DNA of 64,000 bases from Escherichia coli (GTDB lineage Bacteria > Pseudomonadota > Gammaproteobacteria > Enterobacterales > Enterobacteriaceae): NCBI RefSeq assembly GCF_046105845.1, contig NZ_CP151004.1, one strand, 5' to 3'. Positions 33,884 through 50,929 of the stretch are shown here, piece by piece. A model generated the notes under the pieces. That model saw only the letters and a list, made by a program, of their open reading frames with translations. It did no database searches and was not told where the DNA came from. Numbering within the stretch: the stretch's first letter is position 1; every line of letters begins with the position of its first letter. A program made the position numbers and the translations under genes.

Positions 33884-34636
33884 TTATCTCGTCACTTTTC
33901 TTAATTGCACCTCAGCATATGCTTCTTCCTGCCAGCACTTTGTAACCAGTTTATCAATGACATCTGCATATCCTTTGTACCACTGATAATCAGTCAGGTC
34001 TGGTACCAGCTTCTGGACATGACACCGCGCCAGTGTCGTTGGTAAACGACTAAACCGGTTTCCATTGCAACGCCCACAAATCTTATAAACAGGCGCGCCA
34101 TGAAGCCGGGTCCTTTTTTCATCCAGGACAATACCTTTACCCTTACACCCTCTGCACGCTGTGCTGACTTCTCCCTTACCATGACAATGCTGACATAGTT
34201 CCTTCACCCACTCTTCCTTGATAACAGACTCCCCGCTTCTGGAGTATTTCACCACTTCGCGCAATACATTATGAAATCCAGTACCAGCACAAGGCTCACA
34301 GCGAGCCTTACTTGCCGCAGACCTGGAATAATCAGCAAAGGCAAAACTCACAAGGTAAGGGATGATCTGTAACCGGATTTCTTCACTCAATTTGTTCAAT
34401 GTCGGGTTATCCAGTGCCATCGCGTAATTGAGCAGACCTTCAATCGCAAACTGAGGATCCTGAACGCCAGCTTTTGCCAGGAATAAGGCAAACCCAAGCG
34501 GTGCTTTCGACTGCACCATCCCCTGCGCAGCCATCACATCCGTAATCGTTAAACCACCTGAGCCTGTCGCCGGTGCGGCATCACTCAATTTTGGAGATTT
34601 TGGGGAGTAATATTTTGGTAAGGCTTCAAGGTTCAT
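33884..34636 (-). CDS. Late-gene antiterminator Q (QuuD/QuuQ type)
   Basis: From MNLEALPKYY...; Cys-rich zinc-binding region CEPCAGTGF...CQHCHGKGE...CRGCKGKG...CGRCNGN. Confidence 0.8.
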   Translation of the reverse strand: MNLEALPKYYSPKSPKLSDAAPATGSGGLTITDVMAAQGMVQSKAPLGFALFLAKAGVQDPQFAIEGLLNYAMALDNPTLNKLSEEIRLQIIPYLVSFAFADYSRSAASKARCEPCAGTGFHNVLREVVKYSRSGESVIKEEWVKELCQHCHGKGEVSTACRGCKGKGIVLDEKRTRLHGAPVYKICGRCNGNRFSRLPTTLARCHVQKLVPDLTDYQWYKGYADVIDKLVTKCWQEEAYAEVQLRKVTR

Positions 34637-34649
34637 GCTCGTTCTCCAC

Positions 34650-35645
34650 TTACGCCAGTACGCCAATTGCCAGCGCACGATCGATAAAACGAAATATCAG
34701 CTCCAGTTGGGAGCCATACTTCTCTTCAAATGTCACGGTATCCGCATGCAGCTCGTCGTGATGCTTTCTGCACAAAGGCAACACAAAGAGATCATGCGCT
34801 TTTGTACCCATTCCACCCTGACCGTGGCCTATCAGGTGGTGGGGATCATCAGCTGGCTTTCCACAACATGCGCACGGCTGCGTCTTAACCCAGCGCGTGT
34901 ACTTTTCATTAACCCAGCGGCGACGTTTGGGGCGTAACATAAAAGACTCCGGCGACTCCGGATCCACTTTCAGCGCCAGCACCTTTTTCGCTTTATCCTG
35001 GATGATGCTGGTGGCAGGAACCGAAGGCACAAGGTCACTTTCCCGGGTGACAGATGGCACAACAGGCTTCGGTAATCTCAGTGCCTTACGGGCTGCACTT
35101 TCCGGTAAGGCATCCGCCAAATCATTACGAACCAGCCACCAGCACAGTTCCGGCATTGTCACAACGTGACTGTCATCAAAACCGAGATCCCGACGCACGA
35201 CAGACAACACCCAGCGGGCACAGTTATCCGTTGCCATTGATTCCAGCCGTTCCGTGAACTGGTCACGCAGCTGGTTATCGCAGTGCCAGCACAGACGAAT
35301 TGCTCCCGGAGCGTGCCGCATTGTGGTCATGTTCTCGCTGTGCCAGTCGGAATGAGGCCACTGACAGCCCTTTTCACGAAGTAACCAGCTTTCAAGACAT
35401 TCCACGCCACCAGCACGACGGATCACTGCCTCATTGCGGAACACGGCCCGAACGGCAGGATCATCCGCCAGCGGTTGTGATGCCGCCGGAACGGCACCAC
35501 TGGCGAAAGATGAATAACGTTCCGGCTCAGGCTCCAGCAGGACACGCCCCTGCATAAACAGGGGCATCAGCTCTGAACCTGGCCTGAACAATACAATCCC
35601 CATACGCGGGGCAATTTCAGGGGTCAGTAGTGCTCTCACGGTCAC
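34650..35645 (-). CDS. YdfU-like protein (DUF968)
   Basis: 331 aa; C-terminal ...CACCGKPADDPHHLIGHGQGGMGTKAHDLFVLPLCRKHHDELH; Qin-like position upstream of Q. Confidence 0.75.
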   Translation of the reverse strand: MTVRALLTPEIAPRMGIVLFRPGSELMPLFMQGRVLLEPEPERYSSFASGAVPAASQPLADDPAVRAVFRNEAVIRRAGGVECLESWLLREKGCQWPHSDWHSENMTTMRHAPGAIRLCWHCDNQLRDQFTERLESMATDNCARWVLSVVRRDLGFDDSHVVTMPELCWWLVRNDLADALPESAARKALRLPKPVVPSVTRESDLVPSVPATSIIQDKAKKVLALKVDPESPESFMLRPKRRRWVNEKYTRWVKTQPCACCGKPADDPHHLIGHGQGGMGTKAHDLFVLPLCRKHHDELHADTVTFEEKYGSQLELIFRFIDRALAIGVLA

Positions 35646-35646
35646 C

Positions 35647-36444
35647 TCAATGAACGGTATCGAGCAGCTTTAACAGCTCAGGGAATCGGGATTCGAAGAA
35701 ATGCGGCTGCGTCTCGCGCGGATTTGCAGGACTGGTGATGTTCTTGCCGAACATGCAGCCTTTCGCCGTCAGCGACCAGAATTTTTTGATGTTGTTAATC
35801 GCGGTACGGCTGTATCGTTCGCGTTGTTCAACGATCCCCAGCTTCACCATCTGGTGATATGCCTGATTAGCCGTCAGGCGGATACCATACTGCCTCAGCA
35901 GTGCACTCAGAGACAGCGTGGGGCGACTTGAGCCATCGTGTGCATCAGCAGGAGCATCAATGGCATAGCGCGGTGCCAGATTCGGTAAGCCAACAGCCTC
36001 CTGGAGTTTCTGGCAGGCACCAAGCACTGAAGAGTTAGACAGGTTTAATTCCCGGCGCATAAAGTCCAGCAGAATCACACCAGCCTGCATCTTGTCAGCA
36101 GCCTGTCCGGATAATTTTTCCGGTGCGCTGGTTACCATGTCGAAAGTACGGATCACCTTCAGATGGAATGACGGGCTGATCCACATTGCATAGGCATACA
36201 CCAGTTCTTTGCAGACATACGTCCCCTGGTTATTTCCGCCACGAATAACGTTAACTGGCTCTATATTGACCGAGTTGCAAATCTGCAACTCGCTTATTAA
36301 ACGCTCAGTTTGCTCATTGCGGAGCCAGAATGCGGGCTTATGCTTATCCAGAGAACCAGCAGCCCTGTGCAGATCGTTCAGGCTGTAACGCCCATAAGCA
36401 TCACGACGAACTTCAATACCATCAATAACCATCAGATTATTCAT
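35647..36444 (-). CDS. KilA-N domain protein (antirepressor-like)
   Basis: N-terminal VIDGIEVRRDAYGRYSLNDLHRAAG...KPAFWLRNEQTERLISEL. Confidence 0.75.
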   Translation of the reverse strand: MNNLMVIDGIEVRRDAYGRYSLNDLHRAAGSLDKHKPAFWLRNEQTERLISELQICNSVNIEPVNVIRGGNNQGTYVCKELVYAYAMWISPSFHLKVIRTFDMVTSAPEKLSGQAADKMQAGVILLDFMRRELNLSNSSVLGACQKLQEAVGLPNLAPRYAIDAPADAHDGSSRPTLSLSALLRQYGIRLTANQAYHQMVKLGIVEQRERYSRTAINNIKKFWSLTAKGCMFGKNITSPANPRETQPHFFESRFPELLKLLDTVH

Positions 36445-36463
36445 ACTTCGTTTCTCCTCTTAA

Positions 36464-36853
36464 TCAGGCGGCTGCACCCGCCGTTTTCTCGTACTTACTG
36501 ATAGTGATCTCGACCTTCCCTTCCGGGATAACCGGTCCCCACTCCACCAGCATTCTTTTCACCTGACTGTCGTCTTCCCACACACCCGCGTGGGTCAGGG
36601 CGTCAAACAGCGCCTTGTTATAGTTGTCCAGATCGCGGATCCGGTTATCCGGAGGAAACAACACGATCTCCACTGAAGCAGGTGCCGACGTTGGTTTTGG
36701 CAGACGACGTAACTGCTCAAATATTGCTGCACACGCCGCGCTCTGGAATTTGCGCCCCGCCGCGCTTATCAGGCTCTTACCAGCAAACGCCCCTTTGTTG
36801 GGGTGTCGCCAGTACGTGTTCACGCTGGGCGGGAAAGGCAGGATCAGCTTCAT
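36464..36853 (-). CDS. rusA: Holliday junction resolvase RusA
   Basis: MKLILPFPPSVNTYWRH...DLDNYNKALFDALTHAGVWEDDSQV. Confidence 0.85.
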   Translation of the reverse strand: MKLILPFPPSVNTYWRHPNKGAFAGKSLISAAGRKFQSAACAAIFEQLRRLPKPTSAPASVEIVLFPPDNRIRDLDNYNKALFDALTHAGVWEDDSQVKRMLVEWGPVIPEGKVEITISKYEKTAGAAA

Positions 36854-37176
36854 ACTTTCAGGCCCCTCTCATGTAACCAGTGGGCTGCACGCAGTCTGGC
36901 GTTTTCCTCACCGGCAAGCAGTGCGCGGATAATCCCGGCTGCCTCGCTGTCGTCGTCCTTCACTGTGGTATGAAGCGTGATACCCCGGGCCACGCCACGC
37001 TTTATCGTGATGACGCCTTTTTTCTCCAGTGCGCGAAGATGCTCCACCGCTGCATTCACCGAACGGTATCCCAGCATGGCTGCCACCTCCTGATTGGTTG
37101 GCGGGAAACCACGTTCTTTCTGATAAGAAATCAGCATATCCAGCACCTGCTGCTGGCATTGAGTTAACGTCGTCAT
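36850..37176 (-). CDS. LexA-N-terminal-like winged-helix DNA-binding protein
   Basis: LTQCQQQVLDMLISYQKERGFPPTNQEVAAMLGYRSVNAAVEHLRALEKKGVITI parallels the LexA DNA-binding domain; no S24 peptidase domain. Confidence 0.6.
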   Translation of the reverse strand: MTTLTQCQQQVLDMLISYQKERGFPPTNQEVAAMLGYRSVNAAVEHLRALEKKGVITIKRGVARGITLHTTVKDDDSEAAGIIRALLAGEENARLRAAHWLHERGLKV

Positions 37177-37664
37177 TAAGCCCACACGTAATTCCCTGAC
37201 AGATACCACTCATCACCCGATACAGCGCGCTTGCTGCTTTTCCGTAAGCACCGCTCACGGCGCGCCAGAAAATTGTTTCGTTCTGACTGGGAGTGGCTTT
37301 CACGGAATGCCGCCATCCACACGGTTGCAGCACGACGGTATAAGCCCCTGGACTCCAGTTCTTCAGCCTGGCGGGTCAGGCACAAAATTACCCGGGGATC
37401 GTTAGTGCCGACATAGAAATTGCGCACAGGTCTGGTTTCACGAACTGGTTGTGGTTCCGGCTCCTGCGCTCTCTCAGTCAGGCGCGGGAAATGTCTGCGT
37501 GTATTTCCTTCACAACGGTGAGCCACACGCCCACTCTGACGTAACTTGCTTGCTGACTGCAGAACGCGCTGCCGTGAGTAACCTGCAAAAGCATCTGCAA
37601 TGTCTCCGGAAGTACACCCCGGATGGGCTTCAATGAATTTCTGAACTTCATTCAAAAGACTCAT
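37176..37664 (-). CDS. PerC/ANR-like small regulator (hypothetical)
   Basis: C-terminal ELESRGLYRRAATVWMAAF resembles the PerC-family signature. Confidence 0.5.
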   Translation of the reverse strand: MSLLNEVQKFIEAHPGCTSGDIADAFAGYSRQRVLQSASKLRQSGRVAHRCEGNTRRHFPRLTERAQEPEPQPVRETRPVRNFYVGTNDPRVILCLTRQAEELESRGLYRRAATVWMAAFRESHSQSERNNFLARRERCLRKSSKRAVSGDEWYLSGNYVWA

Positions 37665-37666
37665 GA

Positions 37667-38485
37667 TTACCCCCTGAATCCTGCCGGGATCTGGCTGTAG
37701 TCCACGTTGTCGTAACTGGCTTTGAAGTACGGGTCCTCGCGTCTGGCTGCAGATACCGCAGGAACTTCCCAGGATTCTTCGAAATGACGATCCGGACCAA
37801 AGAACGTGACAGCCTGTTTCACAAATTGTGTGCCGCTGTTACCCATCGCAGATACCCAGCCCGCGTAGCGTTTCACACCTTCCAGCATGGTTTCGGGTTT
37901 TACCCCCTCATTCAAACGGGCTTTCCAGGCTTTGAAGGCTGCAGATTTTGAATTGCCACCAGCACGTTTGGGGTATGCCAGCCATGCCTGCTCAAACTCC
38001 GGAGAGTATTCCGGTCGGTTTGAACGAACTCGCACAGACTCATCAGCAGATGCACCAACAGCTATTGGTTCATTGACTGGTTCTTTGACTGGTTCAAAAG
38101 AGTGACTGGTTCTGGGTGAATCTCCTGCACCACCCCCTGGTGCAACTCCTGCACTACCTGGTGAATTTGCTGCACCAGATAGTGAATTATTTGCACTACC
38201 CCCTAGTGAATCTCCTGCACCATCAAGATGAAGGAGATAGATATTACTTGAGTTACCTTTTTCACCTTTCCGGGTGACTTTTTTTACCAGCCCGGAATCA
38301 CAAAGGGCCGCAATATGATTCATCACAGAACGTTTGCTAATCTCGCACTGGTCAGCAATATGCTGGTAGCTGGGCCAGCACTCACCCTGATCGCTGGCAT
38401 TATCAGCCAGCTTGATCAGAACCAGTTTTCGCAATGGATTACCCACTCGAATTTTCATCGCTTTAACCATCAGCTCCATACTCAT
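37667..38485 (-). CDS. Replication initiator (lambda O-like) with N-terminal winged HTH and DnaT-like C-terminal tail
   Basis: Start at 38485 after a GGAGG RBS; low-complexity middle encoded by iterons; C-terminus ...DYSQIPAGFRG matches host DnaT ...[10 protein letters not shown]. Confidence 0.7.
   Translation of the reverse strand: MSMELMVKAMKIRVGNPLRKLVLIKLADNASDQGECWPSYQHIADQCEISKRSVMNHIAALCDSGLVKKVTRKGEKGNSSNIYLLHLDGAGDSLGGSANNSLSGAANSPGSAGVAPGGGAGDSPRTSHSFEPVKEPVNEPIAVGASADESVRVRSNRPEYSPEFEQAWLAYPKRAGGNSKSAAFKAWKARLNEGVKPETMLEGVKRYAGWVSAMGNSGTQFVKQAVTFFGPDRHFEESWEVPAVSAARREDPYFKASYDNVDYSQIPAGFRG
38040..38230. repeat. Iteron-like direct repeats inside the initiator gene (putative replication origin)
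   Basis: Repeated TTGACTGGTTC units and ~21-bp units ending in ...CCTGCAC or TTTGCAC (e.g. CCCTGGTGCAACTCCTGCAC, TACCTGGTGAATTTGCTGCAC, CAGATAGTGAATTATTTGCAC, CCCTAGTGAATCTCCTGCAC). Confidence 0.6.
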
Positions 38486-38718
38486 GCTGCACCTCCGAGA
38501 TGCTTCATGTTTTTTCCGGAGCAAAAGGCTATAAGCGGCATACTGATGCGGTAATTACGGCCCAGCGGTTCACAAATCACCTTCTGACATTCACGGTCAA
38601 CCAGGCTAACACGTAGAACATGCCCTGCAGGCGTGGTGTACCACTGCCCAACTGTAGGAATTGATGTTTTTTTACGCTGAAGCAAACGGCAAATATTGAG
38701 GATCAACGGATTAAGCAT
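38482..38718 (-). CDS. Hypothetical protein
   Basis: 78-aa ORF translationally coupled to the initiator. Confidence 0.4.
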   Translation of the reverse strand: MLNPLILNICRLLQRKKTSIPTVGQWYTTPAGHVLRVSLVDRECQKVICEPLGRNYRISMPLIAFCSGKNMKHLGGAA

Positions 38719-39547
38719 GACGATGCCCTCCGCTGATATTCAGGAGACGGTGAATATGAAAATTAGCCTTATCCGCCAGACGAATACGTTCAGCCTGCAA
38801 GTTAAGAAGGGTTTCTACCAAAACCTGATGCGCCTGCGGATCCGAAAGAGTTACCTTGCGCAGAGCACGTAGTGCAGTTGTTACATAACTGAGTTTATGT
38901 AAGTCTTCATCATTCAGACGAGTGAGGGCTGGGACAGTAGCCATGATGGCAGCCTCCGATAACAGTGAATTACCTTCACCACCGGAAACGCCAATTTCGC
39001 TGGTGGTGAACTGAACGGGGTTGGCGTAACCGGCGTTATCGGAAACCGGCGCACCTTTCGGTGCCCCCGTCCAGCCCACCATAATTTGGGTGTGCACAGA
39101 CACAGACGATAAAAAAGACGCTGGCGCGTCATATATCGCCGATAACATTTCCAGGACGCCAATCCCGTCACCCGCTTTATAAGGTGCCTGAACAGTGTAA
39201 CGTCCCGGAATGGCAGAATCAATGTGCTGGTGGTCCTTCACACTCAACAAAATCACGCCTGAATTTCCACAAAGGACTAAAGCACTCATGCGGGTAGTCT
39301 TTGCGAAGATAGATAACGCGCTGTGTTTCTGGTTCCCAACGAATAACATGGACATAAAGCCCTCTTCCGTCACGAAACCAGCGGTTAAGTTCCCGCACAA
39401 CTCGCCCCCCACAGTCAGGTAAAGTTCTCTGTGGTTACTTACAGCCAGGTGATTTGGTAATCTGCATTCATGCCGTAACAACAGGTGTTCAGCGACACTG
39501 ACCACCAGCTGTTGCGACAAACGGTTATTTGCCGTTAAACTGTTCAT
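38711..39547 (-). CDS. Hypothetical phage early protein
   Basis: 278-aa ORF in the cro-proximal early-right operon. Confidence 0.5.
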   Translation of the reverse strand: MNSLTANNRLSQQLVVSVAEHLLLRHECRLPNHLAVSNHRELYLTVGGELCGNLTAGFVTEEGFMSMLFVGNQKHSALSIFAKTTRMSALVLCGNSGVILLSVKDHQHIDSAIPGRYTVQAPYKAGDGIGVLEMLSAIYDAPASFLSSVSVHTQIMVGWTGAPKGAPVSDNAGYANPVQFTTSEIGVSGGEGNSLLSEAAIMATVPALTRLNDEDLHKLSYVTTALRALRKVTLSDPQAHQVLVETLLNLQAERIRLADKANFHIHRLLNISGGHRHA

Positions 39548-40107
39548 GCGTTAGTTTCTCCACAGACACAAAACGCCACGACGCCCGGAGCTGCACACTC
39601 GCGGGCGTCACTCTTTTCTGGAGCGCAAAAGATTTTGTAGACCAGTGCTGCATGCTCTTGGAGCTTCGAAATTGACAGATACAACTCATCATTAATTGCT
39701 GTCTGCTCGTGTGGCTCCACGACCCCATCTTCGATTGCCGAACGAATCTGCTTTGAGTAATTCCCGATCTGTTCGATGACTTCCAGCAGGCGCTGGTTTA
39801 TATCGGCGTTCTCTACTTCCTCAATTTCAGGAAGCGATACGAACACCCCACCAGCAGACTGTGCGACAGCATCCGCAATGTAGTGAGTGTCAGCCGCGCG
39901 CTGTAAAACCATTGCCCATCCCAGCGGGAAAATCTGATCGCCATCGGCACGAAGGCGGTTAAATAATGCGTTCTCTGTTACATCCAGCCAGTCAGCTGCT
40001 TCAGCGTAACCACCCGGCAACGCTGCGATAGTTTTTCTGACAGCTTTCACGTACCACTCAGGCTGTTTTTCTACTTTCCAGTGATACTTACCCACGGTTA
40101 GCCTCAT
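39544..40107 (-). CDS. Hypothetical early regulator (YdaT/CII-like position)
   Basis: 187-aa ORF immediately downstream of cro; family not confirmed. Confidence 0.45.
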   Translation of the reverse strand: MRLTVGKYHWKVEKQPEWYVKAVRKTIAALPGGYAEAADWLDVTENALFNRLRADGDQIFPLGWAMVLQRAADTHYIADAVAQSAGGVFVSLPEIEEVENADINQRLLEVIEQIGNYSKQIRSAIEDGVVEPHEQTAINDELYLSISKLQEHAALVYKIFCAPEKSDARECAAPGVVAFCVCGETNA

Positions 40108-40429: not shown

Positions 40430-41104
40430 ATGAAAACAATCCATGACATCCGGCGGTCTAACGCCAGAAAACTGAGAGATGGTGTTGGCGGAAATTCATC
40501 CTTTGCCACCATGATTGATCGCGAGCCAACCCAAACCAGCAGGTTTATGGGGGATGGCGCTACTAAAAATATCGGTGACAGCATGGCACGGCACATCGAA
40601 AAATGTTTCGACCTGCCTGTCGGATGGCTTGATCAAGAACACCAGACAACGAACATCACAAAAAAACCTGATGTTTCAATCACTAACAAACAAATAACGT
40701 TAGTCCCTGTCATATCATGGGTACAGGCCGGAGCATGGAAAGAAGTTGGCTATTCTGAGGTTGATTTGAGCACAGCAGAAACGTATCCCTGCCCTGTACC
40801 CTGTGGCGAAATGACTTATATCTTGCGGGTGATTGGTGATTCAATGATTGATGAGTACCGCCCTGGAGACATGATTTTTGTTGATCCCGAAGTCCCTGCC
40901 TGCCACGGTGACGACGTTATTGCATTGATGCACGATACAGGCGAAACCACCTTCAAGCGATTGATAGAAGATGGAACACAGCGTTATCTCAAAGCATTAA
41001 ACCCAAACTGGCCTGAGCCTTACATTAAGATTAACGGTAATTGCTCTATAATTGGTACAGTGATTTTCTCGGGAAAACCAAGAAGATACACAATAAAGGC
41101 CTAA
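40430..41104 (+). CDS. CI-type repressor (HTH plus S24 LexA-like peptidase domain)
   Basis: C-terminal ...VISWVQAGAWKEV...LRVIGDSMIDEYRPGDMIFVDPE...TFKRLIEDGTQRYLKALNPNWPEPY... closely parallels the lambda CI C-domain with Ser and Lys catalytic pair. Confidence 0.85.
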   Translation: MKTIHDIRRSNARKLRDGVGGNSSFATMIDREPTQTSRFMGDGATKNIGDSMARHIEKCFDLPVGWLDQEHQTTNITKKPDVSITNKQITLVPVISWVQAGAWKEVGYSEVDLSTAETYPCPVPCGEMTYILRVIGDSMIDEYRPGDMIFVDPEVPACHGDDVIALMHDTGETTFKRLIEDGTQRYLKALNPNWPEPYIKINGNCSIIGTVIFSGKPRRYTIKA

Positions 41105-46143: not shown

Positions 46144-47367
46144 TCAGTTTGAATCAGAGATAGTACAATTAACAATCGATTCAACCCTCTTCCACCATGC
46201 CAGGTAAGCTTTACGCTGTTCTTCTAGATAATCGCTCTTATCATAAACTTGCCATACCCCTGGCAGCTTATGACCAAGCATAATTTCTGCGATATGAGGC
46301 GCAGTAAGATCAGAAAAATTTGTTCGTGCTGTCCGTCTCAAGTCATGAAGAGACCAATGAGGGAATTGATATCCTAAACGCCGCCACGCGTACTGCATTA
46401 AATTGTAAGGCAGCGACTGTAATGATGTCCTACCGACTGGCTCCCTGCTTCCTTCCTTAGTAAAAAGCATATCGGAACCGTTGTTCATAGAGATAACGTA
46501 TTTTATAAGCTCTTCAACCGGTTCAATAATGGGCCGCTTTAGCGGTTCGCCTGTTATGTCCCCTGTCTTATGTCGTTCAGGTGGTACAGTCCATACCTTA
46601 TTTATGAAATCAAAATCACCCACCCTAGCAGTAATTAGCTCCGAACTACGGCAACCAAAATGCAGTAATAGTTTAATGAAGGCCCGGTATTTGGGAACCA
46701 TTCTAGAGCCATCGATCGCAGCATAAAGAATTTTAATTTCATCGTGTGTCAGAAACCGTTTCTTCTGACCTTTACGGATATCCATATCTTTACCCGTGAT
46801 ATCCGACAGCGGGCGAGTTTCAATAAGCTTTCTCTTATACGCCCAGACATGGGCCTGCTTTGCGTTAATTAGCAATCGGTCTGCTATTGCTGGAGTCTTA
46901 GTGCTAAGAGGCTCCAGGACTTCTAACCAATCATGCAATGTAGCTGCATCGTGAGGGATATTCCCGATTTTAGAGAACAGGTGCAGCTCAAACGAGCGGA
47001 GTATCTGTTCAGAACCCTTTTTATTTTTTACACAATATGCTTCATACCAGGCACGGATCACAGACTCTACCGTCATGGCTTCAGTAGCTTTTCGTTTTTC
47101 AGCCTGCTTGACCAATCGTGGATTACGGTTTGACTCGAGTTCACCACGGAGACGGATAACTTCTTCTCTGGCCTCTTTTAATCCAGTTGCCGGGTAAGTT
47201 CCGATATCAAGACGCTCACCTTTCCCTGCCCATTGATAACGATATTGAAACACTACGCGACCTTTCGGTGATACTCTGACAGACAGACCATCACGATCGG
47301 ATTTAACCAAAACCTTATCACGTTCCTTTCCAACGACTGAACGCAACCACGCATCAGACAGCGCCAT
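46144..47367 (-). CDS. int: Tyrosine integrase (P4-like, arm-binding N-domain)
   Basis: 407 aa; N-terminal ...LSVRVSPKGRVVFQYRYQWAGKGERLDIGTYPATGLKEAREE; C-terminal ...HDLRRTARTNF...IMLGHKLPGVWQVYDKSDY. Confidence 0.9.
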   Translation of the reverse strand: MALSDAWLRSVVGKERDKVLVKSDRDGLSVRVSPKGRVVFQYRYQWAGKGERLDIGTYPATGLKEAREEVIRLRGELESNRNPRLVKQAEKRKATEAMTVESVIRAWYEAYCVKNKKGSEQILRSFELHLFSKIGNIPHDAATLHDWLEVLEPLSTKTPAIADRLLINAKQAHVWAYKRKLIETRPLSDITGKDMDIRKGQKKRFLTHDEIKILYAAIDGSRMVPKYRAFIKLLLHFGCRSSELITARVGDFDFINKVWTVPPERHKTGDITGEPLKRPIIEPVEELIKYVISMNNGSDMLFTKEGSREPVGRTSLQSLPYNLMQYAWRRLGYQFPHWSLHDLRRTARTNFSDLTAPHIAEIMLGHKLPGVWQVYDKSDYLEEQRKAYLAWWKRVESIVNCTISDSN

Positions 47368-50606: not shown

Positions 50607-50693
50607 GCGAAGGTGGCGGAATTGGTAGACGCGCTAGCTTCAGGTGTTAGTGTCCTTACGGACGTGGGGGTTCAAGTCCCCCCCCTCGCACCA
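50607..50693 (+). tRNA. leuQ: tRNA-Leu (anticodon CAG)
   Basis: GCGAAGGTGGCGGAATTGGTAGACGCG...CTTCAGGTG...GGTTCAAGTCCCCCCCCTCGCACCA; long variable arm; first of three tandem copies. Confidence 0.95.
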
Positions 50694-50721
50694 AAAACCA
50701 CGTTGATATTGCTCGCACTGG

Positions 50722-50808
50722 GCGAAGGTGGCGGAATTGGTAGACGCGCTAGCTTCAGGTGTTAGTGTTCTTACGGACGTGGGGGTTCAAGTCCCCCCCC
50801 TCGCACCA
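50722..50808 (+). tRNA. leuP: tRNA-Leu (anticodon CAG)
   Basis: Second tandem copy, one substitution in the variable arm (GTGTTC vs GTGTCC). Confidence 0.95.
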
Positions 50809-50842
50809 AACGAGGCGATATCAAAAAAAGTAAGATGACTGT

Positions 50843-50929
50843 GCGAAGGTGGCGGAATTGGTAGACGCGCTAGCTTCAGGTGTTAGTGTCCTTACGGACG
50901 TGGGGGTTCAAGTCCCCCCCCTCGCACCA
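50843..50929 (+). tRNA. leuV: tRNA-Leu (anticodon CAG)
   Basis: Third tandem copy, identical to the first. Confidence 0.95.

Follow-up and report, generated by a model that had tools for sequence, protein, structure and literature searches.

Dyad-symmetric repeats inside the replication initiator gene of a lambdoid Escherichia coli prophage: a probable replication origin and the conserved element beside it

The DNA analysed here is a stretch of 64,000 nucleotides of Escherichia coli (contig NZ_CP151004.1; referred to as the window), which carries a lambdoid prophage of the SfV / ST64B / 2H10 / Stx2c-phage type. Inside the replication initiator gene of this prophage, five 15-bp imperfect inverted repeats, each composed of two 5-nucleotide half-sites around a 5-nucleotide spacer (GTGCA-N5-TKCAC), are located at 38116-38220, corresponding to residues 89-123 of the protein. 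Judged from the comparison of these sequences among related phages, the 15-mers are very probably the initiator-binding sites (iterons) of a prophage replication origin that lies within the initiator gene. Iterons inside a lambdoid initiator gene are of a textbook kind; the case described here is an undescribed member of that kind in an initiator family other than O. The literature search found no paper on these iterons or on the conserved element that adjoins them, older subscription papers on SfV and ST64B being outside the search. A preliminary description of the window had called the gene O-like and had proposed an origin inside it as in lambda O. This interpretation is partly supported, appearing essentially right and over-assimilated to lambda.

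Five dyad repeats in the initiator gene and their counterparts in relatives

The gene, the domains of its product and the five repeats are arranged as follows (the coding strand being the minus strand of the window).

37667..38485, minus strand: replication initiator gene, 272 amino acids from the ATG at 38485 (MSMELMVKAM...), from the list of open reading frames (ORFs), Pfam and PHROG
38222..38485, minus strand: N-terminal DNA-binding domain of winged-helix type, residues 1-88, in which a beta-hairpin wing comes after the helices (AlphaFold2 predicted local distance difference test, pLDDT, >90)
38206..38220, minus strand: iteron 1, coding strand GTGCAGGAGATTCAC, plus strand GTGAATCTCCTGCAC
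38182..38196, minus strand: iteron 2, coding strand GTGCAAATAATTCAC, plus strand GTGAATTATTTGCAC
38161..38175, minus strand: iteron 3, coding strand GTGCAGCAAATTCAC, plus strand GTGAATTTGCTGCAC
38140..38154, minus strand: iteron 4, a perfect 5-N5-5 palindrome, coding strand GTGCAGGAGTTGCAC, plus strand GTGCAACTCCTGCAC
38116..38130, minus strand: iteron 5, 2 nucleotides from the conserved element, coding strand GTGCAGGAGATTCAC, plus strand GTGAATCTCCTGCAC
38018..38209, minus strand: disordered linker, residues 93-156 (AlphaFold2 pLDDT <50)
37751..38008, minus strand: helical C-terminal domain, residues 160-245 (AlphaFold2 pLDDT >88)

The iterons directly follow the coding region of the winged-helix domain, and the conserved element directly follows the iterons. 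Their start-to-start spacing is 24, 21, 21 and 24 bp, or about two helical turns. Iterons 2-5, the conserved element and a portion of iteron 1 lie in the DNA for the linker; for its first few residues the array runs through the gap between the confidently modelled winged helix and the low-confidence stretch. All the repeats of the preliminary description, the tandem units as well as those of ~21 bp, were found within the gene where it had placed them, the long repeats numbering five instead of "at least four". On the plus strand the long repeats end in CTGCAC or TTGCAC, and the low-complexity peptide that the preliminary description quoted is the minus-strand translation (...DGAGDSLGGSANNSLSGAANSPGSAGVAPGGGAGDSPRTSHSFEPVKEPVNEP...).

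The pattern GTGMA-N5-TKCAC matches six times in 64 kb against 0.41 expected, five of the six matches being in the array, and none of 100 shuffled sequences reached six. With up to three mismatches, the consensus GTGCAGGAGATTCAC gives nine matches in the window against 1.5 expected. According to Tandem Repeats Finder (TRF), the sole tandem arrays in the whole window are these repeats and a tRNA-Leu triplet. Both half-sites are kept among the five copies while the spacer and the encoded peptides vary (GAGDS, SANNS, GAANS, SAGVA), in keeping with a site for a dimer more than with a repeated peptide. Outside the array, a lone sixth site fitting GTGMA-N5-TKCAC (GTGAATTACCTTCAC) was observed at 38965-38979 within an Ash-family ORF, some 745 bp from the array on its promoter-proximal side; it is not conserved, being present in 20 of 73 near-identical loci, and travels with the upstream Ash-family gene. 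An RNA element was also considered and rejected, the Rfam scan of 37000-39000 giving only a sub-threshold match to mir-875 (score 22 bits, gathering threshold 84, E = 0.1), which arises because adjacent dyad-symmetric iterons at 38138-38198 form a 24-nucleotide imperfect inverted repeat (79% complementary).

The set of relatives used for diversity was collected by tblastn of a phage collection, depending on protein similarity only, and by a DNA-pattern scan of IMG/VR; a first scan of viral contigs returned near-identical loci only and was used for polymorphism, not for diversity. Every one of 13 independently diverged relatives (13/13) carries its own dyad-repeat array, with one to seven copies, at the same position, and about 30 further variants likewise have dyad repeats of their own. 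The array-bearing relatives are phages of E. coli, Salmonella, Klebsiella, Vibrio, Psychrobacter and Pseudomonas, and include the following repeats.

24B: GGGGCAGGAGCTGCCC, 3 copies
Stx2_EH2085: GGGGCAGGAGCTGACC, 7 copies
Klebsiella ST15-VIM1phi2.1: CCCTATGCCA-N6-GGCAC, 4 copies
Salmonella S107: CCCCTGTGCCGCCAGAAAGCAC, 5 copies
Vibrio D160: GTGAY-N5-GTCAC, 3 copies
Vibrio 252E42.2: GGTGACAGAGAGTCAC, 5 copies
Vibrio 381E49-1: ATGGCAGGAAATGGCA
Psychrobacter Y8A: GTGACAG-N3-GTCAC
Pseudomonas MD8: CCGCAGNANATGCACC, 6 copies

Across the ~30 variants the repeat type tracks, as a correlation, the recognition-helix segment of the initiator, which in the window is SKRSVMNHIAAL at about residues 50-61. 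The helix S[KR]RSV[MI]NHI goes with GTGCA/GTGAA half-sites, S[KR][ST]AVRNHI with TATGCCA..GGCAC (a type found in both Klebsiella and Salmonella phages), SRSTVKSHI with GGGGCAGGAGCTG, and [DN]RSTVR[KR]HI with CTGTAGGCC. Vibrio phage 236O40-1 (helix SRRSVIDH) carries GGTGAATCTCCTGCAC, that is, the iteron of the window on the opposite strand, and its two identical copies are translated in two frames, as GESPAL and VVNLLH, indicating that the iteron functions at the DNA level. An inverted site is also present in one IMG/VR locus with the helix SRRSVINHI (L165).

Among near-identical alleles the number of iterons is mostly five, with six in one locus (L087) and eight in phage cdtI, the latter resulting from a 66-bp insertion of three units. 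For 65 unique alleles of the same length (at least 86.7% identical), third codon positions are segregating at 4 of 35 sites in the half-sites and the GAACCAGTCA element, compared with 101 of 222 in the flanking coding sequence of the N- and C-domains (Fisher p = 7.6e-5).

The conserved element beyond the last iteron

The iteron array abuts on a second set of repeats, for which two overlapping features can be defined.

38079..38113, minus strand: family-wide conserved 35-nucleotide element AGAACCAGTCACTCTTTTGAACCAGTCAAAGAACC, which holds copies 1 and 2 of GAACCAGTCA, 17 nucleotides apart and in different frames
38062..38096, minus strand: tandem 12-mer array GAACCAGTCAAA / GAACCAGTCAAT / GAACCAATAGCT (TRF period 12), overlapping the 3' part of the element

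On the coding strand, AGAACCAGTCACTCTTTTGAACCAGTCAAAGAACCAGTCAATGAACCAATAG starts two bases past iteron 5, and in every case compared the element begins 1-3 nucleotides past the last iteron. Three exact units of GAACCAGTCA (plus strand TGACTGGTTC) are located at 38112-38103, 38095-38086 and 38083-38074, with spacings of 17 and 12 nucleotides and with a degenerate fourth unit at 38062-38071; these three are the only exact matches within the 64-kb window. The same unit is read in two frames in one gene, copy 1 in phase 1 (RTSH) and copies 2 and 3 in phase 0 (EPVK, EPVN), and in Vibrio 236O40-1 the first copy is read in yet another frame (PEPVT) with a spacing of 15 nucleotides. These shifts of frame indicate that the element is conserved at the level of DNA (or RNA), not of the peptide.

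The degree of conservation was estimated in eight diverged relatives, namely the protein-search set with the junction RT[SY]HS[FL]EPV.EP. The consensus AGAACCAGTCACTCTTT(T/A)GAACCAGTCAA(A/T/G)GAACC is almost invariant over 35 nucleotides in these eight, and residues that are identical use the same codon in 284 of 300 cases (95%) in the element, compared with 518 of 1323 (39%) in the N-domain. The preliminary description had taken the two repeat sets as one array; both sets are real, and yet they differ in kind, the 15-mers being variable, dyad-symmetric and initiator-specific, while the TGACTGGTTC units are family-wide, conserved at the DNA level and not type-specific. This frame-independent conservation of the 35-nucleotide GAACCAGTCA element beside freely diverging iterons is the one point that could surprise a specialist.

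Alleles differ in their number of 12-mers, from 3 to 5 ACCAGTCA units, both 4 and 5 units having been seen. Distant relatives carry other tandem units at the equivalent place: GAACCTATCAAT three times in Psychrobacter Y8A, GAACC four times at 11-13 nucleotides in Pseudomonas MD8, and TCCTAACAGTAT three times in Vibrio 252E42.2. At least four unrelated types of C-domain begin directly after the GAACC of the element, and in phages 24B and SI8, whose N-domains are nearly identical and whose C-domains differ, the DNA sequences stop matching precisely where the element ends. The element is a mosaic joint at which unrelated C-domains are exchanged.

A probable origin inside the initiator gene and other explanations

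If the 15-mers are iterons, the replication of the prophage might start as follows. Dimers of the winged-helix domain would bind the five sites to form a nucleoprotein complex like the O-some. The abutting 12-mer element would be the place of duplex opening, or of contact between single-stranded DNA and the initiator or a host factor, or both, and in this role would correspond, with no AT-richness, to the 13-mer repeats found in the unwinding elements of oriC and RK2 oriV. The helical C-domain would recruit DnaB, the host helicase, alone or together with DnaC, and transcription from pR would pass through the site, as it does at ori-lambda. As the linker that contains the sites is disordered, repeats can be gained or lost, and their reading frame or strand can change, with no harm to the protein.

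This arrangement can be compared with several known systems. At ori-lambda, four 18-bp dyad iterons (ATCCCTCAAAACGAGGGA and variants) lie in the region for O residues 117-145, with spacings of 20, 24 and 23 and in three codon phases. The layout is the same up to the last iteron: in both cases the initiator ORF contains, immediately past the part that encodes the DNA-binding domain, dyad-symmetric initiator sites at a spacing of about two turns, the initiator gene follows cII in the pR operon, and a type-specific N-half with its iterons is joined to an exchangeable C-half. Beyond this, the analogy with lambda is incomplete. The iterons are unrelated (GTGCA-N5-TTCAC here, TCCCTC-N6-GAGGGA in lambda), the initiator and O lack sequence homology, a stretch of 22% GC comes after the lambda iterons, where here the conserved 12-mer element has ~42% GC and no stretch of ~80% AT exists, and P adjoins O in lambda whereas no gene for a loader or helicase of P/DnaC type is present in the operon of this prophage. 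The comparative evidence speaks strongly for iterons and an origin inside the initiator gene as in lambda O, with a likeness to lambda that is less close than proposed.

According to published comparisons, the coding regions of lambda O and of gene 18 in both P22 and phage L contain iterons distinct from one another, four repeats of ~20 bp in P22 and six 11-bp TGTCCAACGGA repeats in L (PMC8022706). The logic of iterons in a linker is shared with P22 and L; the repeat sequences differ, and in P22 and L the DnaB-type helicase gene 12 follows gene 18, unlike the gene order here. In the unwinding elements of RK2, F and oriC, short repeats stand beside the initiator sites, their sequence and position being critical and one strand being bound by the initiator (PMC4081077). 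The GAACCAGTCAAA 12-mers hold the place equivalent to that of the RK2 oriV 13-mers, F oriS 8-mers and oriC 13-mers. Unlike those AT-rich and intergenic elements, they are translated and not AT-rich. Unlike iteron plasmids, the region has no DnaA boxes (TTWTNCACA) within 6 kb of the gene, and the initiator consists of a single winged helix and a helical C-domain instead of the double winged helix of Rep_3; tandem short repeats beside iterons are the sole feature shared with origins of the Rep_3/TrfA-type oriV, to which this one does not belong. A further likeness is to the HTH_36 initiators of phages such as 24B (O), Pseudomonas MD8 (gp56) and Vibrio phages, all of which combine a winged helix, an iteron-coding linker and 12-mers of GAACC type. 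Iteron sequence, copy number and C-domain are particular to each of them, and in most cases a gene for helicase, primase-helicase, DnaC or P follows. For MD8, "repeats within the O-like gene" have been taken as evidence (PMC8508860).

Several observations weigh against an origin of this form. The array is not flanked by a strongly AT-rich stretch suited to unwinding: past the last iteron the GC content is ~42%, and the duplex there, with a 40-bp free energy of -49.4 kcal/mol, is only ~1.7 standard deviations less stable than the regional mean (-55.9 kcal/mol, standard deviation 3.7). The least stable duplex in the gene is at 38201..38290 (40-bp nearest-neighbour free energy -45 kcal/mol, GC 0.40-0.42), on the promoter-proximal side of the iterons and opposite the element, and this segment is a candidate alternative unwinding site. 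Among the close alleles, the half-sites do not differ significantly from the spacers and inter-iteron DNA (6 of 50 against 12 of 55, p = 0.21). The pattern scan of IMG/VR gave at least 120 element loci, 111 of them in frame inside an initiator ORF of the family in the window and the other nine cut at the locus end or with an unrecognised N-terminus, initiator or linker sequence being seen; these loci were ascertained on the element pattern and thus serve for context only, not as a measure of element conservation. Salmonella phage SI8 (L008) and one further locus (L120) have a single recognisable iteron (GGGGCAGGAGCTGACC) before the element, and one site in SI8, a phage that was isolated and forms plaques, sits uneasily with an O-some of multiple dimers. 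The literature search for this type of initiator found no binding or origin-activity data.

The repeats could also have been generated by slippage as a low-complexity Gly/Ser/Ala/Pro linker, selected for length and flexibility and with no function of the DNA. The region is indeed predicted to be disordered, the five copies are in the same codon phase here, and gains or losses of units come in multiples of 3, as expected from unequal crossing-over. Such a linker, however, does not account for half-sites that stay while the encoded residues change, for dyad symmetry in every array together with covariation with the recognition helix, for depressed third-position variation relative to the structured domains, or for GAACCAGTCA in two frames within one gene; and the finding of the same DNA site in other frames or on the other strand in relatives, encoding unrelated peptides, largely refutes this explanation, which we regard as very improbable. 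A different role for genuine initiator sites would be autoregulation or copy control, by roadblock or handcuffing, with replication starting elsewhere in the prophage. Plasmid iterons also serve control functions, and the sixth matching site, 745 bp promoter-proximal, and the lack of an adjoining AT-rich stretch would be in agreement with such a role. The sixth site, however, is confined to that minority of near-identical loci, TRF detected no other repeat array in the prophage part of the window, DnaA boxes are absent over the 6 kb searched, and the layout is that of ori-lambda, where sites of this kind are the origin. Control without origin function seems improbable to us, if less so than a functionless linker.

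For the 35-nucleotide element, the alternative is that it is kept as a joint for homologous recombination between an origin-specificity module (N-domain and iterons) and a helicase-recruitment module (C-domain), with no direct role in initiation. This is what the start of unrelated C-domains right after GAACC and the break of identity between 24B and SI8 would suggest. On the other hand, exchangeability is a weak force for the maintenance of 35 invariant nucleotides across phages of Escherichia, Klebsiella, Salmonella and Vibrio in which synonymous sites are otherwise saturated, and it does not explain the fixed distance of 1-3 nucleotides to the last iteron, the internal direct repeats at 12 and 17 nucleotides, or the tandem 12-mers of other sequence that distant relatives keep there, which point to a structural or functional requirement. 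A joint and nothing else is, in our estimate, unlikely. We give a slightly better than even chance to a direct function of the element in the origin, beyond that of a recombination joint. More specifically, the element and the 12-mers together (38062-38113) might be a previously undescribed non-AT-rich origin core, that is, a sequence-specific site of unwinding or helicase entry at a fixed distance, whose single-stranded DNA would be bound either by a host factor or by the initiator through its conserved part, shared by a large family of HTH_36 phage initiators and serving as a recombination joint as well; this full proposal is tentative and we consider it possible but doubtful. From the distribution of the repeats, such a core may range over phages of Enterobacteriaceae and Vibrio, with variant 12-mers in phages of Psychrobacter and Pseudomonas.

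The initiator, its operon and implications

The ATG at 38485 is the start in all relatives. The initiator matches Pfam HTH_36 (PF13730) in its N-terminal part, with 43.5 bits against a cutoff of 25 (2.8e-11), and gives besides a weak match to DnaD_N; residues 3-271 match phrog_270, "replication initiation protein" (1.5e-88). The replication protein of Escherichia phage 2H10 has the same sequence (100% identity), those of SfV, cdtI, mEp460 and many Stx2c/Stx2a phages share ~98% identity with the initiator, and ST64B Sb42 shares 87%. Homology to lambda O was rejected, as no match to Phage_rep_O (PF04492) was obtained at E <= 0.01 and the alignment of the family against lambda O by hhalign had a probability of 0.7%; the term O-like therefore holds for the architecture and genome position of the gene and not for its family. 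Foldseek with the model of the N-domain retrieved generic winged helices of MarR/ArsR type and the DnaD N-domain only. The sequence search of PDB with the initiator found no relative, and the NCBIfam scan gave sub-threshold HTH regulators only.

Residues 147-249 match PHROG families annotated as DnaD-like helicase loader and primosomal protein. The C-domain had no Pfam family match and its model no Foldseek match; most of the proteins retrieved with it by protein search were fragments lacking any Pfam domain and gave no clue to its identity. Its role is presumed to be recruitment of the host helicase or its loader. Many E. coli records were observed to be C-domain-only fragments of the initiator (P0005 and others, for example of 122 amino acids, annotated as "replication protein"), and these have the look of truncated copies left in cryptic prophages after loss of the N-domain, iterons and element.

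The initiator gene belongs to a minus-strand early-right operon of canonical lambdoid type, between the genes for CII-like and Ash proteins and the Q antiterminator. The genes around it are listed below.

46144-47367: integrase
40430-41104, plus strand: CI-like repressor
between the CI-like and CII-like genes: Cro-like gene
39544-40107, minus strand: CII-like gene
38711-39547, minus strand: Ash-family gene
38482-38718, minus strand: ORF of 78 amino acids upstream of the initiator, phrog_1153, function unassigned in PHROG
37176-37664, minus strand: PerC-like activator, directly downstream of the initiator
36850-37209, minus strand: LexA-N-like gene, with the LexA DNA-binding domain and no peptidase
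minus strand, after the LexA-N-like gene in this order: RusA, KilA-N and DUF968 genes
33884-34678, minus strand: Q antiterminator

The 78-amino-acid ORF and the initiator start overlap by 4 nucleotides (38482-38485), and the same overlap is annotated in phage cdtI (orf45/orf46), which suggests translational coupling. Within the operon from the CII-like gene to Q (33884-40107), the ORF list, Pfam and PHROG gave no gene for P, DnaC or helicase; PhiR49_2, 24B, SI8 and MD8, unlike this prophage, have a partner gene of helicase, primase-helicase, DnaC or P type. PhiR49_2 and another locus (L003) share the N-domain and iterons with the initiator of the window, and carry genes for DnaC and helicase together with another C-terminal tail. 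The region 37600-38800 contained no sigma-70-like site for an internal promoter and a single terminator-like hairpin (38262-38277), which is at chance level. About 3 kb past the integrase, three tandem tRNA-Leu(CAG) genes were noted at 50607-50929, with host genes such as one for a HAD hydrolase in between.

This type of initiator is carried by many Stx2c, Stx2a, cdt and SfV serotype-converting prophages of E. coli, Shigella and Salmonella. Replication of the prophage after induction drives the gene dosage of toxins. The putative origin and its specificity determinants would be targets for replicon typing, for work on incompatibility or origin decoys, and for minimal replicons. The comparison within the family provides what may be read as a natural table pairing recognition helices with iterons for a winged-helix initiator, and the 12-mer element is a candidate for duplex opening and recruitment of the host helicase without an AT-rich stretch or a phage-encoded loader.

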